The notes under the pieces are model-generated. The model worked only from the letters and a program-made list of their open reading frames with translations. It was not told where the DNA came from and did no database searches. Shown in pieces: positions 1 to 5,206 of a stretch of DNA of 5,206 nucleotides (its first letter is position 1; each line of letters begins with the position of its first letter). The translations under genes were made by a program, and so were the position numbers. This DNA is from a virus, in IMG/VR virus record IMGVR_UViG_3300011982_000022, positions 1-5,206 of that record, one strand, 5' to 3'.

Positions 1-99
1 ATTCTTCCTCCAAAACTGAAATAATTTTATAATTACCTTTTACTTGCGCTTTTAATTCTCGAACCATCGGCGTAAGTATCTTGTAATTCCGTCTACCAA
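1..99. repeat. Terminal redundancy copy 1; identical to 5108-5206. Circular genome, unit length 5107 nt
   Basis: Direct comparison: window 1-99 (attcttcctccaaaactgaaataattttataattacc...gtctaccaa) is base-for-base identical to 5108-5206. Microviridae genomes are circular ssDNA, so this is most simply a linearisation/assembly overlap. Confidence 0.95.
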
Positions 100-160
100 G
101 TAAACGCAAAATACGTTTAATCAATTCTAAATCTTCAACAGGTACCATTACATAATCCAT
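1..160 (-). CDS. Hypothetical small protein, 53 aa (MDYVMVPVEDLELIKRILRLLGRRNYKILTPMVRELKAQVKGNYKIISVLEEE). Sense codons are 2-160; the stop codon TGA is formed across the circular junction (5106-5107 plus 1), i.e. 5106-5108 in the duplicated copy
   Basis: ATG at 160-158 preceded by AAGGAG (169-164) with a 6-nt spacer. Hand translation of the minus strand gives an uninterrupted 53-codon frame. Same strand as all other genes. Too short for the ORF track. The stop TGA overlaps the ATG of the next ORF (TGATG). Confidence 0.5.
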   Translation of the reverse strand, partial: MDYVMVPVEDLELIKRILRLLGRRNYKILTPMVRELKAQVKGNYKIISVLEEE

Positions 161-206
161 AAATCGCTCCTTATTCTGTCTATCTGATTTACATCCCATA
201 ATGTAT

Positions 207-235
207 AGTATGTCGCCAACTTTTTCATCTGTCAA
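207..235 (-). promoter_or_regulatory. Candidate sigma70-like promoter on the minus strand: TTGACA (235-230), 17-nt spacer, CATACT (212-207), upstream of the 53-aa ORF
   Basis: Perfect -35 hexamer TTGACA. The -10 candidate CATACT keeps the conserved A2 and T6. It lies in the 64-nt gap between the 46-aa and 53-aa ORFs. The -10 is weak, and TACTAT at a 19-nt spacing is the alternative. Confidence 0.2.
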
Positions 236-365
236 GTAATTTTTTTATAAACTTATAAAAAACTACACAAACAACAACCAAAAGCACTAACATTGCCAAC
301 GCCGAAAGCAAACCAGCAACATCCATTCTAGAATTCTGCACAACATCAACATCTCTAACACCCAT
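225..365 (-). CDS. Small single-pass membrane protein, 46 aa (MGVRDVDVVQNSRMDVAGLLSALAMLVLLVVVCVVFYKFIKKLLDR)
   Basis: ATG at 365-363 with GAGGT (372-376, overlapping the VP2 stop TGA) 6 nt upstream. The frame was verified codon by codon and stops at TGA 227-225. A 22-residue uninterrupted hydrophobic core (VAGLLSALAMLVLLVVVCVVFY) is followed by a basic tail (KFIKKLLDR). Not in the ORF track (below size cutoff). Confidence 0.55.
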   Translation of the reverse strand: MGVRDVDVVQNSRMDVAGLLSALAMLVLLVVVCVVFYKFIKKLLDR

Positions 366-374
366 TTCATTACC

Positions 375-1196
375 TCACTGCATTTGTTTAAGAATAGGAT
401 TCATCGCTTTTTCAAACCATTTATTACCAAAAAGACTATCAATCGCTTTATTTCCAAGACTTGCAAAACCTTTAGCAGCATTTCCAACTTCACCATAATT
501 ATAACGCGGGTTAATACCCGTTGCATAATACTTTTGTAAATCAACAAGCGTCATAACTCTTTCCATCTGCGCCGTAAGTATATCACTCGCAATTTTATCC
601 ATCTGCATCTTATACAGATTTCCGTGAATTTTGTTCAAGTCAACATTCGAACGGCTTAAACCTGAATTCGCACGATTTAAATCTTTCTGCGAGCCATAAA
701 ATGAAGCATCACGACGAGAAGCCTCTGCTCCAATTTCACGAGCTTGATACGCTCTCGCCAAATTATCAGCAATCTGGCTATCAACAGCCGTAGACTGCGC
801 GTCAAATAATTTTCCTTGCGATACCGCGCGAGAAGTATTCGCTTGAGCTTCCTGCGTCTCCGCTGAAAGTTTACGAATTTGAGCCAGATTCGTCAATGCC
901 GCAATCGCATTCATTGCAACATCCATCTTCGAAGCATCAACTTGAGGAGCCTGCACAGGAACCGAAACGCCGGCATTTGCAGCACTACCTGCAGCAAGCG
1001 TTTTAGATAAGCCGGCAGCTTCCAAATCGGCAACACGACGCTGCACCGCATTATCCTCACGAGCAAAAATCTGCTGTTGAATACCTTTATCATACTCCAT
1101 CTTTTGATGCTGTTGAACAGCATTATATATACTAATACCACTATTCACAGTACCAGAAATCGCACCTGCTATAATCTCTGCAATCGGAGCACCCAT
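375..1196 (-). CDS. VP2: VP2-like minor capsid / DNA pilot protein, 273 aa
   Basis: ORF track 375..1196. ATG at 1196 preceded by AAGGTGG (1209-1203) with a 6-nt spacer. Gly/Ala-rich N-terminus (MGAPIAEIIAGAISGTVNSG) followed by a long Gln/Ala/Asn-rich predicted coiled-coil region, the typical composition of microvirus H/VP2 pilot proteins. Located downstream of VP1. Confidence 0.8.
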   Translation of the reverse strand: MGAPIAEIIAGAISGTVNSGISIYNAVQQHQKMEYDKGIQQQIFAREDNAVQRRVADLEAAGLSKTLAAGSAANAGVSVPVQAPQVDASKMDVAMNAIAALTNLAQIRKLSAETQEAQANTSRAVSQGKLFDAQSTAVDSQIADNLARAYQAREIGAEASRRDASFYGSQKDLNRANSGLSRSNVDLNKIHGNLYKMQMDKIASDILTAQMERVMTLVDLQKYYATGINPRYNYGEVGNAAKGFASLGNKAIDSLFGNKWFEKAMNPILKQMQ

Positions 1197-1214
1197 CTTT
1201 TACCACCTTTCGGT

Positions 1215-1260
1215 GTCATCTAGCATTATACACAACAAGAAAGGGTTAATGCTAGATGAC
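1215..1260. promoter_or_regulatory. Hairpin H1: perfect 14-bp inverted repeat (1215-1228 gtcatctagcatta / 1247-1260 taatgctagatgac) with an 18-nt loop. The loop carries TATAAT on the minus strand (1230-1225). It ends 5 nt upstream of the VP2 SD
   Basis: Read directly: the reverse complement of 1247-1260 equals 1215-1228. It sits in the only sizeable intergenic region. Confidence 0.45.
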
Positions 1261-1274
1261 CAACTCAAATTGAA

Positions 1275-1308
1275 TTAGGGGAAAGGGGTTGCGCCCCCTT
1301 TCCCCTAA
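1275..1308 (-). terminator. Hairpin H2: perfect GC-rich 14-bp stem (1275-1288 ttaggggaaagggg / 1295-1308 cccctttcccctaa) with a 6-nt loop ttgcgc. Candidate intrinsic terminator after the VP4-VP1-scaffold transcript, or origin/packaging element
   Basis: Read directly. It lies 5 nt downstream of the scaffold-like ORF stop (1313-1315) on the mRNA strand. On the minus strand the stem is followed by UUCAAUUUG, an imperfect U-tract. Confidence 0.5.
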
Positions 1309-1312
1309 AACC

Positions 1313-1702
1313 TCATTTGCCGCTTTGACTCTCTTGAGGAACATCCGATTCACCTTTGACATCAGTGGATTGCTCCGTAGCGGCAATCGTTGCATCTTGC
1401 TGTGTCTCTATTTGTTTAGCAACATTTTGAGACATTCGCAATAATGCATCTCTTTGTGCCACTGCTGCATCCACAATGTCAAAATCTTCATCACGTGTTA
1501 AATCTTCAAGAGATTCATCAATCTCACCATCAAAATCATAAATACCAAGATTACGCACAAAATCAAGGCTTTTTCCTGCTTTCAAAAATCTATCAACCTG
1601 TTGCGCTACCGAGAGCGGACGAACAAGCTGAAAATCTGAAACTTTCTTCGCATCATAAACAGGATTGACCATCTTCCAAGTCGCTGTAGTTTGTTCTGTC
1701 AT
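1313..1702 (-). CDS. Acidic internal scaffolding-like protein (VP3-like), 129 aa from ATG 1702 (track ORF 1313..1714 uses a TTG 4 codons upstream)
   Basis: ATG at 1702-1700 preceded by GAGGTG (1712-1707). Stop TGA at 1315-1313. Strongly acidic (YDFDGEIDESLEDLTRDEDFDIVDAAV...), the size and charge expected of a gokushovirus VP3 scaffold. The TTG at 1714 overlaps the VP1 stop but is a less likely start. Confidence 0.65.
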   Translation of the reverse strand: MTEQTTATWKMVNPVYDAKKVSDFQLVRPLSVAQQVDRFLKAGKSLDFVRNLGIYDFDGEIDESLEDLTRDEDFDIVDAAVAQRDALLRMSQNVAKQIETQQDATIAATEQSTDVKGESDVPQESQSGK

Positions 1703-1710
1703 TTTACACC

Positions 1711-3498
1711 TCAATGATCAATAAGACCGGGAACGGGAATAAGCGGCATCGGACGCCACGCATCAACACGCGTCAAAATCTCGATCACCGCACAATTTTC
1801 ATCATGCACCGCGAAAATATCCTTACGAGGATAACAACGTATAAACGATGAGTTCAACTGCGGAGGATTCGCCGGATCAAATTGCCGAGCCAAATGCCAA
1901 TAACCATATTTTTTACGCATATCACCGCAAACCTGCGTTGTCTTTGCACGATATTCATCATACCGCCCTTGATAACCGAACAAACCGGCAGCACCATCAC
2001 CAAGCTGCGCAGGTGTCATAACCGACGGAGACGCAACCAATTCAGCTTCACGCACTTCCTGTTCAGATAAATTAGCAAACTCGGGAAGATAGAAATCATA
2101 CCGCGACCGTCGCAACATTTCACGATGAATACCTTGCGAACTAAACGACTGGTCCGGACGCAAAAAAGCAAGACCGATTACATAGCCATGTTCACGAGCG
2201 CTAAACTTTCCAACAAAATCACCACCAATCGAAACACCACGAGACGCTAAATTACCTTGCGGACTGTTCGAAACCGACGAAGATGTCTGAACAACCTCAT
2301 TAACCAATACAACCGATTTAGTACCTCCAATAAAATGCGGACGCTGGAGTGTATCATCATTCGGCGCTACACCAAACACAGACAAAAGACCTTCAACATA
2401 CCGAGCACCTCCACGCGCCATTCGCTCCATAAAACGTTGGGTTTGAAACATCAAACGCATATCCGATACATCCGCAAAACTTGACGATTCCAACGGAAAA
2501 CGAGAATAAGCTAAACGCTGAGGAACACCCTCAGGTTGCTTAGTAGTAGACACACGATTATTTGCTGGCAAAATATTCCCAGTATTATTAACTATAAGTT
2601 TTTGCTCAGTATCATTTATATAATTTGAATCAAAATCAGCATAATTTGAATTAAAAGTAGGAAATGGCGGATCTTCCATAAAAGCAGCATTAGCAGTACG
2701 TCTATGAAAACGTTCTAAATATAATCTTGCATTATCCACAGAAGTAGGAACCAATGTAAAACCAGGAGAACTCAAAGGCAAAGCAACCGGCTCACCACGC
2801 TGTTGCCACGGCAAAGACGATGTAAAATAATTTGAGGTCCACGTACACAAGAACAATCCCATATCATCGAGCTTTCGTTCATCTTCCAAGTTCTCATTTC
2901 GATAACATTCGTTGTAAATATAATTATACGCAATCAACGGAAAAGCAAGCGGACAATACGCCGAATAATCTGTATCCGCACCATTCTTTCCAACATCACT
3001 CAAATCTCCAAATCCAACAGACGTCGGAAATCCAAACGCATCCCAGAGCGAACCGACAGCATCAGCTTTTCCAGTTCGAGGAACAAGGGCGCCACTGACA
3101 ACTTTTGAACCAGAAATTCGAACATCATTTTTATTCGGAATCCAGAGGGGCAGGGTAGGGGTAATACCGGCTTCAGTTACTCCATCACCTTTCTTTCCGC
3201 CAAAAATAAAAGTCTCCCAACCTTTTGCAATTTCGGGAAACTTCTGCTGATACAATACACGAGAGGGAACATACCAGAAATGCGTTATAAACTTAATACC
3301 AGTCATCGGAACCGACACCATCGGTAAAAGCCGAACAAGCGCCGAAGCGCTTATTTTCAACACATCACCAGGAATAACTTCTCGGAAATATACAGGATGA
3401 ACTTCACCCATATCACAAGAATACATCTTATGATTATCCAAACGGAACCGCGACCGTTTCAAATGCCGAACAGGCACTTGTCCGAATACATCCATCAT
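1711..3498 (-). CDS. VP1: Major capsid protein VP1 (F-like jelly-roll), 595 aa
   Basis: ORF track. N-terminus RSRFRLDNHKMYSCDMGEVHPVYFREVIPGDVL matches the conserved gokushovirus VP1 start (RNRF.L...DMG.L.P...EVLPGD). AAGGAG is 4 nt upstream of the ATG. The ATG (3498-3496) overlaps the upstream ORF stop (ATGA). The size is typical of Gokushovirinae VP1. Confidence 0.93.
   Translation of the reverse strand: MMDVFGQVPVRHLKRSRFRLDNHKMYSCDMGEVHPVYFREVIPGDVLKISASALVRLLPMVSVPMTGIKFITHFWYVPSRVLYQQKFPEIAKGWETFIFGGKKGDGVTEAGITPTLPLWIPNKNDVRISGSKVVSGALVPRTGKADAVGSLWDAFGFPTSVGFGDLSDVGKNGADTDYSAYCPLAFPLIAYNYIYNECYRNENLEDERKLDDMGLFLCTWTSNYFTSSLPWQQRGEPVALPLSSPGFTLVPTSVDNARLYLERFHRRTANAAFMEDPPFPTFNSNYADFDSNYINDTEQKLIVNNTGNILPANNRVSTTKQPEGVPQRLAYSRFPLESSSFADVSDMRLMFQTQRFMERMARGGARYVEGLLSVFGVAPNDDTLQRPHFIGGTKSVVLVNEVVQTSSSVSNSPQGNLASRGVSIGGDFVGKFSAREHGYVIGLAFLRPDQSFSSQGIHREMLRRSRYDFYLPEFANLSEQEVREAELVASPSVMTPAQLGDGAAGLFGYQGRYDEYRAKTTQVCGDMRKKYGYWHLARQFDPANPPQLNSSFIRCYPRKDIFAVHDENCAVIEILTRVDAWRPMPLIPVPGLIDH
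2620..2661. repeat. Imperfect 21-nt tandem duplication inside VP1 (2620-2640 ataatttgaatcaaaatcagc / 2641-2661 ataatttgaattaaaagtagg; 17 of 21 identical), encoding the 7-aa repeat PTFNSNY/ADFDSNY
   Basis: Direct alignment of the two adjacent 21-mers. It lies in a visibly AT-rich island (about 2560-2700) of the VP1 gene. Confidence 0.6.
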
Positions 3499-3818
3499 TC
3501 AGCTCCTTGCGAAATCTGTTCCGCAGAAATAGGCTCAACCTCTGATTCAACCGAAGCATCTTCATCATACAAAACATCACACGCTTTCATTACTTCTTGA
3601 GGAATTATTTTTATATCTTCAGAAAAAACAATTCCCGTTTCTTCATCATAATCGCACATCGAAATCAACGAAAAATCATCCAACGAAATATTCTTTTGCT
3701 TTACCATAACACGATTCACCGTATCTGCAAAAATACGCTTCGCGACACCGTCATTCTTTGCATTGAACACATTTCCACACAATTCAGCAACCTTATCGTA
3801 AATACAATAGATTTTCAT
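3495..3818 (-). CDS. Hypothetical acidic protein, 107 aa, in the VP5 / protein-C position between the replication initiator and VP1
   Basis: ORF track. ATG at 3818 preceded by GAGGTG with a 5-nt spacer (GTGAGGTGTAAAAATG). It begins 2 nt after the VP4 stop, and its stop overlaps the VP1 start (ATGA at 3495-3498). The C-terminus is acidic (DEDASVESEVEPISAEQ). Confidence 0.75.
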   Translation of the reverse strand: MKIYCIYDKVAELCGNVFNAKNDGVAKRIFADTVNRVMVKQKNISLDDFSLISMCDYDEETGIVFSEDIKIIPQEVMKACDVLYDEDASVESEVEPISAEQISQGAE

Positions 3819-3820
3819 TT

Positions 3821-4690
3821 TTACACCTCACTATGTTTGTTATAAAGCGATATCTTTGAATTGACAGTCTGTTCACGCAATCGAGCATTTTTCCTACGCT
3901 CCGAAAGATAATACATGTATGCCATATCATAATCATTCTGATCAGACAGCGAAAACTCGGAACCAAACTTCGACGAAAAAATACGCGCAAAACGCAAAAA
4001 ATCTTCCTGCTCTTTATCACGCATCAATTCATTAAGCCGTTCCTTGTCCACATGGATTTTTTCTCGGTAATAACGAGGCAACGCCATCACATGCTTATCA
4101 ATTCGCACTAAACCGCTTTCCTTTAAAAAATCTGCATTCTCGATCGCAAAACCGAGACCTAAACCACGCGAACAAAGCGAGAAGGGCGGAGTAAGACCAT
4201 TTTCTTGATAATACGTCTTTCCAGACTTACCGTACAATTTTTTCTGCACATAGCCAGCAACATACCTACAACTATCATACGTTACCGATCCAATAGCTTT
4301 AGACGGCAAACACGCCCAATCTGCATACATCCACGCATTTTTAATTAACATTCTGTCAACCAAATCATTGGAATCCAGACCATATACTATTGCATGATAA
4401 TGTGGACGATGTGTTACATCACCATATTCACCAACCGCATAATATTTTATCTTGCGACCACCTAAAGACTTGCGTAATCGTTTGAAAAACAGCTGTACGT
4501 GCCTTTTACGTAGATTAGGCGGCAGATCTGCATCACGATATGTCAACGTGATAAACGCCGCACTTTTCCAATCTCTCAACTCAAACATTAAACGCATAGC
4601 CCATTGGTGAGACCGCATGATTTTACACGGCATGCAATGACCACAGGGCAGTGGAACACCGCCCTTATAAAAAGGGCGGACACAAACCAT
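3821..4690 (-). CDS. VP4: Rolling-circle replication initiation protein VP4 (HUH endonuclease, superfamily I; phiX174 gene A-like), 289 aa
   Basis: ORF track. Motif I FITLTY, motif II HYHAIVY, motif III YVAGYVQKK with two Tyr (compare phiX174 A YVAKYVNKK). N-terminal Cys cluster PCGHCMPC. The ATG at 4690 lies 2 nt after the stop of the Arg-rich peptide. Confidence 0.92.
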   Translation of the reverse strand: MVCVRPFYKGGVPLPCGHCMPCKIMRSHQWAMRLMFELRDWKSAAFITLTYRDADLPPNLRKRHVQLFFKRLRKSLGGRKIKYYAVGEYGDVTHRPHYHAIVYGLDSNDLVDRMLIKNAWMYADWACLPSKAIGSVTYDSCRYVAGYVQKKLYGKSGKTYYQENGLTPPFSLCSRGLGLGFAIENADFLKESGLVRIDKHVMALPRYYREKIHVDKERLNELMRDKEQEDFLRFARIFSSKFGSEFSLSDQNDYDMAYMYYLSERRKNARLREQTVNSKISLYNKHSEV

Positions 4691-4692
4691 AT

Positions 4693-4764
4693 TTACCTGC
4701 TGAAACCGCCTCTACGACGGCTATACTTCGTTATACGACGATGACGTCTTCGACGACGGCTCAC
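4693..4764 (-). CDS. Arginine-rich 23-aa peptide (M/V-SRRRRRHRRITKYSRRRGGFSR), GTG start. Candidate DNA-binding/packaging protein analogous to phiX174 J or gokushovirus VP8
   Basis: Hand translation of the minus strand: GTG at 4764-4762 preceded by a perfect GGAGG (4775-4771) with a 6-nt spacer, in-frame stop TAA at 4695-4693, and an upstream in-frame stop that bounds the ORF. 12 of 23 residues are Arg. Its GTG overlaps the TGA of the upstream 64-aa ORF (GTGA), and it ends 2 nt before the VP4 ATG. Not in the ORF track. Confidence 0.55.
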   Translation of the reverse strand: MSRRRRRHRRITKYSRRRGGFSR

Positions 4765-4955
4765 TTTTTACCTCCGGAAATCAATGAAACACCGGCTACC
4801 GTGCCAAAAATAGATTGCAATATTTTGACTGCAATATCAACGCCGCTATTGATGTGAGCAAGCGACTCGTTGCCCAAAACAATAGAGAGAGCGCAAAACA
4901 CAACAGCAAGAAAAAACATGAGCATTTTCACCCATTTATTCTTGAGAAATTCCAT
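4761..4955 (-). CDS. Small membrane protein, 64 aa (MEFLKNKWVKMLMFFLAVVFCALSIVLGNESLAHINSGVDIAVKILQSIFGTVAGVSLISGGKK), using the internal ATG of track ORF 4761..5024
   Basis: ATG at 4955-4953 has GGAGGT (4968-4963) with a 5-nt spacer. The track start at 5024 has no SD within range. Lys-rich N-terminus, then an 18-residue hydrophobic helix MLMFFLAVVFCALSIVLG, then a second weakly hydrophobic segment (IAVKILQSIFGTVAGVSLI). Confidence 0.6.
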   Translation of the reverse strand: MEFLKNKWVKMLMFFLAVVFCALSIVLGNESLAHINSGVDIAVKILQSIFGTVAGVSLISGGKK

Positions 4956-5106
4956 CTGAAACCTCCGTACCTTCAAAAACCTTCGCAACAACAGGCGAAC
5001 GATTTTGATTAAGCCAATCAACATAAGCCTGCGCCTTGTCTAAATCAGTGTAAGACCGACACCACGTTTGAAAGTCTTTCGACACCAACACAAAAAATAC
5101 CTTCAT
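4936..5106 (-). CDS. Hypothetical small protein, 56 aa (MKVFFVLVSKDFQTWCRSYTDLDKAQAYVDWLNQNRSPVVAKVFEGTEVSDGISQE)
   Basis: ATG at 5106-5104 preceded by a perfect GGAGG with a 7-nt spacer (ttGGAGGaagaatgATG). The ATG shares its A with the TGA stop of the 53-aa ORF (TGATG). The frame was verified by hand to TAA at 4938-4936, so its 3' end overlaps the SD and first 19 nt of the 64-aa membrane ORF in another frame. The sequence is non-repetitive and looks like a real protein. Not in the ORF track. Confidence 0.45.
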   Translation of the reverse strand: MKVFFVLVSKDFQTWCRSYTDLDKAQAYVDWLNQNRSPVVAKVFEGTEVSDGISQE

Positions 5107-5107
5107 C

Positions 5108-5206
5108 ATTCTTCCTCCAAAACTGAAATAATTTTATAATTACCTTTTACTTGCGCTTTTAATTCTCGAACCATCGGCGTAAGTATCTTGTAATTCCGTC
5201 TACCAA
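5108..5206. repeat. Terminal redundancy copy 2 (same as 1-99)
   Basis: Exact 99-nt identity with window start. It contains the 3' part of the 53-aa ORF a second time. Confidence 0.95.

Follow-up and report, generated by a model that had tools for sequence, protein, structure and literature searches.

Directly ahead of the replication gene VP4 in the IMG/VR virus record IMGVR_UViG_3300011982_000022 lies a short, unannotated open reading frame (ORF), which we predict to be a genuine gene for a VP8/J-type peptide, that is, an internal peptide that would condense the single-stranded DNA (ssDNA) genome and dock on the capsid. From the sequence evidence and the analogy with characterized VP8 and J proteins, we place the probability of this reading at roughly 0.8. 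The stretch analyzed, hereafter the window, covers positions 1 to 5,206 of the record and has an exact terminal redundancy of 99 nucleotides (nt; 1-99 = 5108-5206), which identifies it as a circularly assembled microvirus genome of 5107 nt. Every recognized gene of this genome lies on the minus strand, and the gene set, identified through Pfam and PHROGs profile searches with matches to Phage_F, REP_ORF2-G2P, Phage_ORF5 and pilot-protein PHROGs, is of the gokushovirus type. The mini-ORF (4764-4693, minus strand; 23 codons plus TAA) is located between a hydrophobic ORF of 64 amino acids (aa) (ORF64; 4955-4761, minus strand), which has its own GGAGG and whose stop overlaps the mini-ORF start, and VP4/Rep (4690-3821, minus strand; Pfam REP_ORF2-G2P), which begins 2 nt past the mini-ORF stop.

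The product of the mini-ORF is VSRRRRRHRRITKYSRRRGGFSR, a peptide of 23 aa and about 3.0 kDa containing 11 Arg and one Lys, with a net charge of +12; written for either initiator, it is (V/M)SRRRRRHRRITKYSRRRGGFSR (4693-4764, minus strand). A perfect GGAGG Shine-Dalgarno (4771-4775) stands 6 nt (TAAAAA, 4770-4765) ahead of the GTG start (4762-4764), which overlaps the TGA (4761-4763) of the 64-aa ORF to form GTGA. There are 22 sense codons between GTG and the TAA stop (4695-4693), followed by the spacer AT (4692-4691) and the VP4 ATG (4690-4688). The upstream frame is shut two codons before the GTG (TAA AAA GTG), and GTG is therefore the sole possible start. An earlier sequence-only reading of the window had described a GTG-initiated 23-aa ORF bounded by stops, with GGAGG at 6 nt, a GTGA overlap with the 64-aa ORF and a 2-nt gap to VP4, all of which can be read directly from the sequence. 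It had also called the peptide more than 50% Arg; the richness holds but the figure is slightly too high, as Arg accounts for 11/23 residues (48%), or 11/22 (50%) past the initiator, with Arg plus Lys reaching 12/23 and Arg, Lys and His 13/23. The N-terminal basic block SRRRRRHRR (4735-4761, minus strand) is the putative ssDNA-binding part, a role suggested by its composition and by analogy with J and VP8, and the C-terminal tail RGGFSR (4696-4713, minus strand) is the putative capsid-docking part.

The mini-ORF shares the translational habits of its genome. The coding strand of the 5107-nt genome contains GGAGG only five times, in three cases 4-6 nt before starts (those of ORF57, ORF64 and the mini-ORF), and a start pattern of GGAGG or GAGGTG followed by TAAAA and the start codon is common to the mini-ORF, VP5, the VP3-like gene, VP2, ORF57 and ORF64. 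The Shine-Dalgarno of VP4 is the weakest in the genome (AGCAGG; AGCAGGTAAATATG). CGT supplies 7/11 of the Arg codons in the mini-ORF and is also favored in VP1, VP2, VP3, VP4 and VP5 (49/87). The gene calls on the source contig, from human oral metagenome ERZ988427 with an exact VP4, comprise the 64-aa ORF and VP4 with nothing between them, and the contigs of relatives likewise have no gene called between the position of the 64-aa ORF and VP4, in keeping with the earlier statement that the peptide is unannotated. Annotation is absent at this site in the metagenome contigs, in a Treponema socranskii genome and in three GenBank microvirus genomes; gene callers miss the mini-ORF, and the peptide falls below the usual minimum gene length.

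No other ORF of 20 aa or more in the six frames of the genome is as rich in Arg as the mini-ORF; the runner-up reaches 30%. Across 2000 dinucleotide-preserving shuffles of the genome, the maximum Arg content in any ORF of at least 20 aa was 42%, and 0/2000 reached the value of the mini-ORF. To follow the frame in relatives, a VP4 protein search was used, which returned a cluster of 34 VP4 sequences at least 90% identical; seven further loci from this cluster were compared with the source locus. All eight close loci (VP4 92-100% identical; six nucleotide haplotypes) retain the mini-ORF, in three peptide forms (VSRRRRRHRRITKYSRRRGGFSR, MRRRRRHRRITKYSRRRGGFSR and MRRRRRHRRISKYSRRRGGFSR). Of 21 sense codons shared among them, 12 vary, and 11 of these 12 changes are silent, the remaining one exchanging Thr and Ser. 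The pairwise proportion of synonymous differences (pS) in the mini-ORF frame is 0.42-0.48 against 0.02-0.04 for nonsynonymous differences (pN), and some of the latter represent CGN/AGR paths that still encode Arg. In the other two sense frames and in two of the three antisense frames pN equals or exceeds pS, and the antisense frame that shares the wobble positions shows a weaker silent excess; a simple binomial for the silent excess gives about 4e-6 (26% synonymous sites). Five of the eight loci have ATG in place of GTG at the equivalent position, and this A/G difference is at the same time a silent Lys AAA/AAG change in the 64-aa ORF. The start-stop overlap (ATGA or GTGA) and a 2-nt spacer (AT or GT) before VP4 are kept in all close loci, and the 64-aa ORF is called as a gene in the contigs of most close relatives, with a 54-aa ORF in its place in locus L095. 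These patterns are strong evidence that the mini-ORF is a genuine gene whose translated peptide has a sequence under purifying selection.

The same data bear on whether the frame could be accidental or non-coding, generated by a CG-rich repeat or by a gene on the opposite strand. Such an origin would fit the shortness of the ORF, the stop-free Thr/Ser-rich frames produced when its Arg codons are read in reverse and the one antisense frame with some silent excess. We nonetheless consider it extremely unlikely: no shuffle matches the composition, the Shine-Dalgarno is strong and correctly spaced, the silent excess is greatest in the proposed frame, the ORF is kept down to about 42% VP4 identity, and the recognized genes are all on the minus strand. 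Folding of the RNA at the site gave no structure (z = -0.07) and an Rfam search there returned no family match, and an explanation of the site by RNA structure was rejected accordingly. One antisense ORF of 68 aa, Thr/Ser-rich and spanning the whole mini-ORF (4651-4857, plus strand), was rejected as a by-product of CGT/CGA codons read backwards, which makes it a potential source of error where ORFs are listed in six frames. A frameshift that would extend VP4 at its N-terminus was rejected as well, since the TAA stop, the VP4 ATG and the VP4 N-terminus are all conserved; alignments to the VP4 of relatives begin at residue 1.

In more distant relatives the arrangement recurs. All sampled relatives at 42-53% VP4 identity carry Arg-rich ORFs of 22-27 aa with GGAGG-type sites directly before VP4, so that the conserved mini-ORF which the sequence-only reading had suggested looking for is present at every distance sampled. 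At 46-53% identity (L092/L093, L181 and L185), the peptides MRKRRRSRRIGRRKYRRVARGGYSG, MRRRRRRHSRRIGRRKYRRVPRGGYSG and MRRRRHRSRRMSRRKYRRVPRGGFSG are encoded by GGAGG-preceded ORFs that abut or overlap the VP4 start and end in RGG[YF]SG; in L184 and L185, the mini-ORF stop and the VP4 start have one base in common. These sister-clade peptides resemble that of the window in the pattern RRI...KY...RGG[FY]S, in their non-hydrophobic end and in their position at or over the VP4 start, but differ in length (25-27 aa) and in ending with Gly where the window peptide has Arg. At 40-44% VP4 identity, two Microviridae from pig feces (MG945612 and MG945712) and contig L186 have a 22-aa peptide, MRFRRGRRLRRRYRVSRGGIRF, that ends about 9-10 nt before VP4. 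It agrees with the window peptide in its 11 Arg, its GGAGG, its lack of annotation and the gene order VP4-VP5-VP1-x-VP2, but keeps the canonical RGGIRF tail, and the corresponding VP4 is just 42-44% identical. Three GenBank genomes hold unannotated VP8-type ORFs with GGAGG, namely MG945612 (L081 4311-4379, 22 aa), MG945712 (L082 4389-4457, 22 aa) and PQ007223 (L083 3194-3292, 32 aa).

Among 181 loci gathered by VP4 similarity, 125 have, on the same strand as VP4, an Arg-rich ORF whose peptide has an RGG tail, and many of the others are partial contigs. The ORF lies directly before VP4 in 23 of the 125 and elsewhere in 102, mostly members of one freshwater clade in which it precedes VP1. In this clade (L007 1311-1415; most of the IMG/VR freshwater loci L007-L080), a peptide of 34-35 aa of the form MRRRNSYRR...YYVSRGGIRL is encoded directly before VP1, placed as the J gene of phiX174 is before F, overlapping a 67-aa ORF and separated from VP4 by about 1.7 kb; members of the group thus differ in where they carry the gene. 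In all, 59 distinct RGG-tail peptides were collected, 22-46 aa long (median 34), and 51/59 have a hydrophobic last residue, with RGGIRL the commonest tail; the non-hydrophobic ends are RGGFSR (3) in the window lineage, RGGYSG (2) and RGGFSG (1) in the sister clade, RGGRRR (1) and one with a tail outside this list. Across relatives the tails form a graded series from RGGIRL through RGGYRL, RGGYSG and RGGFSG to RGGFSR. One IMG/VR locus of 6217 nt (L011) has two VP8-type ORFs about 4.4 kb apart, MRFSRSRSRFRSRRRGSG...PRGGIRL and MKFRSRFRSRRRSRRR...PRGGIRL, and may have been assembled as a chimera or concatemer from two related genomes. A contig scan with VP4 added only one distant contig from a Bacteroidetes metagenome-assembled genome, and a scan of IMG/VR with VP1 gave three distant loci.

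The features that recur in these relatives, an Arg-rich ORF, a position before VP4 and an RGG tail, support the earlier proposal that the peptide is an analogue of J and VP8. Gokushovirus VP8 (ORF8) is, like the window peptide, small and Arg/Lys-rich, and is encoded on the coding strand of a genome that carries VP1, VP2, VP4 and VP5. The VP8 genes of Chlamydia phage Chp2 and Bdellovibrio phage phiMH2K are located upstream of Rep, as in the window: ORF8 of Chp2 (44 aa, 3010-3144) precedes ORF4/Rep (3262) and ends in ...RRIMRGGIRF, and gene 10 of phiMH2K (38 aa, 3516-3632) stops 19 nt short of Rep (3651) and has the tail ...AMRGGIRL; its annotation reads ‘putative DNA binding protein; similar to phiX174 J protein’. 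The vp8 product of Escherichia phage EC6098 (phiEC6098; 39 aa; PDB 8DES chain E, ‘putative DNA binding protein’) has the tail ...SMRGGIRL. The RGGIR[LF] of VP8 and the RGGFSR of the window place R-G-G in the same register, followed by a hydrophobic or aromatic residue, and G-G stands exactly three residues from the C-terminus in the window peptide, in the three VP8 proteins and in the J proteins of phiX174 (38 aa, ...LWYVGGQQF) and alpha3 (24 aa, ...LWYVGGSQF). The net charge of +12 is common to the window peptide, phiX174 J and the gene 10 product of phiMH2K.

Structural work gives these likenesses a possible functional meaning. In the cryo-electron microscopy structure of SpV4, VP8 is an Arg/Lys-rich J analogue on the inner capsid surface, with its C-terminal Phe38 buried in a hydrophobic region of VP1; structural conservation between VP8 and J proteins is confined to the last four residues, and the basic N-terminal part faces the DNA and is ordered only in DNA-filled particles (PMC11281519). 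A charge-neutralizing VP8/J protein is among the most common microvirus proteins (PMC11980548). The J proteins of the Bullavirinae are comparable to the window peptide in their basic N-terminus, their G-G-plus-three C-terminus and their proposed job, but their tail WYVGG[QS]QF ends in Phe and their gene lies between D/E and F rather than before Rep, whereas the window mini-ORF precedes Rep with VP1 two genes further on. Of the conserved J tail RLWYVGGxQF, the window peptide has nothing beyond the G-G-plus-three register. By this comparison it appears to work like J without belonging to the J family (Pfam Microvir_J), and is best described as an analogue. Gp10 of the Rhodobacter microvirus Ebor (‘Tainavirinae’), a positively charged, virion-associated protein proposed to be VP8/J-like, is encoded next to or overlapping Rep (PMC11980548), but at 145 aa, against 23, it has no motif in common with the window peptide.

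Several observations set the peptide apart from VP8 or weigh against assigning it there. Its last residue is Arg, whereas J and most of the RGG-tail peptides end hydrophobically; the residue buried in VP1 in SpV4 VP8 is thus replaced, which could make docking weaker or different in kind. With its 23 aa the peptide is shorter than the characterized VP8 proteins (38-44 aa; 38 aa in SpV4), its haplotype starts with GTG, and it falls one residue below alpha3 J. Searches of the peptide against Pfam, including the J family (E <= 10), and PHROG gave no hit, a null result that carries no weight because canonical VP8 peptides of 34 aa or less (22-34 aa) are missed too; PHROG 10695, which is labeled ‘unknown function’ and includes the VP8 proteins of Chp2 and phiMH2K, detects these two but no peptide of 34 aa or less, canonical ones included. 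A hidden Markov model built from 32 relatives’ peptides gave the window peptide 0.5 bits after composition correction (bias 19.3), and 1456/2000 shuffled peptides scored as well; since this correction removes the score, profile searches cannot prove homology to VP8. With hhalign only the tail aligns (rv.RGGy vs ..sRGGi), at a probability of 66%, and the chance of R-G-G-hydrophobic in exact register given the composition of the peptide is about 4e-4 in a post hoc test. A phmmer search of the PDB returned no VP8, only a chance match to a neuropeptide, and a tblastn search of phages with the 23-aa peptide came back empty owing to low-complexity masking. The proposed membership in the VP8 kind accordingly draws on position, size, composition, strand, tail register and the graded tail series, and owing to its non-hydrophobic terminal residue we class the peptide as a variant-tailed VP8.

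The terminal Arg, which departs from the hydrophobic anchor of solved capsids, would also suit a peptide that is made but is not part of the virion, such as a Rep cofactor, a nucleic-acid-binding regulator or a host-directed peptide, as would the location of the gene in the early/replication block beside Rep. Characterized VP8 genes adjoin Rep too, however, and both the R-G-G-plus-three register and the aromatic residue after G-G are retained. No other strongly basic small ORF was found in the genome, which leaves it with no other candidate for charge neutralization, and we judge a role outside the virion to be unlikely.

For a VP8/J-type peptide, the following sequence of events can be proposed. 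Ribosomes would initiate at the GTG (ATG in most relatives), guided by the GGAGG and perhaps handed over from the terminating 64-aa ORF. The resulting peptide of about 3 kDa and +12 charge would use its Arg block to bind the nascent ssDNA genome and enter the procapsid with the DNA, neutralizing part of the phosphate charge. The copy number of phiX174 J is 60, and by calculation 60 copies of the window peptide would neutralize about 14% of the 5107 phosphates, which equals the fraction for phiX174 J. The peptide would then dock on the inner face of VP1 through its RGGF-S-R tail; we infer VP1 as the partner of the C-terminus from the structures of SpV4 and phiEC6098. Ribosomes stopping 2 nt before the weakly signaled VP4 ATG would probably reinitiate, giving low levels of Rep relative to the peptide. 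Translation is probably coupled along the 64-aa ORF, the peptide and VP4; the conserved overlap (ATGA or GTGA), the spacing of 2 nt before VP4 and the poor Shine-Dalgarno of VP4 are consistent with this. An output of much peptide and little Rep would suit a virion that takes up about 60 peptides while Rep is needed in catalytic amounts.

These same features could be taken to mean that the mini-ORF is only a regulatory upstream ORF that delivers ribosomes to VP4, or throttles them there, through a peptide with no role of its own. The narrow gap and the poor ribosome-binding site of VP4, a layout kept in all close relatives, and the base shared by stop and start in L184 and L185 are what such a device might look like. 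Yet the amino-acid sequence is under strong purifying selection, with nearly all variable codons (11/12) changing silently, the tail motif is common to structural VP8 proteins, and the freshwater-clade counterpart before VP1 is conserved independently of VP4. We therefore hold a purely regulatory function to be very unlikely, and a role in coupling is in any case compatible with a structural role, as the two can coexist.

A more specific extension of the VP8/J-type reading, which we offer tentatively and regard as doubtful in its full form, is that the Treponema-phage lineage described below and the sister clade make up a distinct VP8 sub-type that has given up the hydrophobic anchor (RGG-F/Y-S-R/G). 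Docking would then proceed through the aromatic residue two positions earlier or through a salt bridge of the terminal Arg, no genome-condensing capsid protein known so far would be shorter than this peptide of 22-23 aa, and the ORF would serve as an obligatory ribosome hand-over that sets the ratio of peptide to Rep.

The remaining genes of the window, all on the minus strand, follow the gokushovirus pattern. ORF57 (5109-4936) has a GGAGG Shine-Dalgarno; downstream of VP4 are VP5 (3818-3495; Pfam Phage_ORF5), the major capsid protein VP1 (3498-1711; Pfam Phage_F), a VP3-like acidic ORF of 129 aa (1702-1313), a VP2-like pilot protein (1196-375) and a hydrophobic ORF of 46 aa (365-225) with a good Shine-Dalgarno. 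Whole-genome megablast against GenBank phages gave no match, and the best identities among GenBank phages are 44% for VP4 and 40% for VP1. For the 46-aa ORF, Pfam gives a match below threshold to inovirus coat protein B (E = 0.005); like the 64-aa hydrophobic ORF, it may encode a membrane, lysis or superinfection protein. A strong G+C-rich hairpin of 14 bp with a T-rich tail, located between the VP3-like ORF and VP2 (1275-1308, minus strand), is the best terminator-like site of the genome; it could alternatively be a complementary-strand origin or a primosome hairpin. The gene calls of the source contig include a 78-aa ORF (L087 1133-1369) that spans the window origin (from about 235 to 1, then wrapping), contains the dif-like site described below and lacks a Shine-Dalgarno; it is probably not a real gene.

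Members of the VP4 cluster also point to the host. One, WP_431726346, is annotated as ‘rolling circle replication-associated protein [Treponema socranskii]’ and is encoded on the 2.8-Mb contig JACBJH010000001. On this contig and on two oral-metagenome contigs, the phage is integrated between an NTP-transferase gene and rodA, with which the mreBCD-pbp2-rodA cluster ends, and both prophage junctions carry a dif-resembling repeat, ...TATACATTATGrGATGTAAaTTAG.... The corresponding dif-like site of the window is GACATACTATACATTATGGGATGTAAATCAG (about 186-216, minus strand), with copies at about 5373 and 10595 in L094 and about 5280 and 10433 in L095. The presence of the repeat at both junctions suggests that the phage integrates at dif, presumably through XerC/D, and XerC/D-mediated integration at dif has been described for gokushovirus prophages of enterobacteria (PMC7062461). 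Judged by these sequences, the host of the phage is the oral spirochete Treponema socranskii, in which it occurs as a dif-flanked prophage; among the papers searched, none links gokushoviruses to a Treponema host. The best promoter-like site of the coding strand, TTGACA-17-CATACT (207-235, minus strand), is immediately 5' of the dif-like site, and integration moves it to the extreme right of the prophage, facing host DNA and split from the ORF57-ORF64-peptide-VP4 block. It is speculative that this site, driving that block in the circular form, acts as a lysogeny/replication switch.

A VP8 gene before Rep is the expected gokushovirus arrangement, and the kind of protein is already known. What is new is the small size (22-23 aa, one to two residues under alpha3 J), the use of GTG as start in this haplotype, a C-terminus that, as in the sister clade, is not hydrophobic, and the gap in annotation. 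For general biology the significance is modest, as an expected gene is confirmed and no new mechanism is added. For the microviruses, the search rule that follows from these features, an Arg-rich coding-strand ORF of 20-45 codons with a strong Shine-Dalgarno and an R-G-G-x-x-x end, may recover genes missed in many annotations, and the variant tail makes it possible to ask, in a natural setting, which parts of the capsid-docking motif are truly needed.

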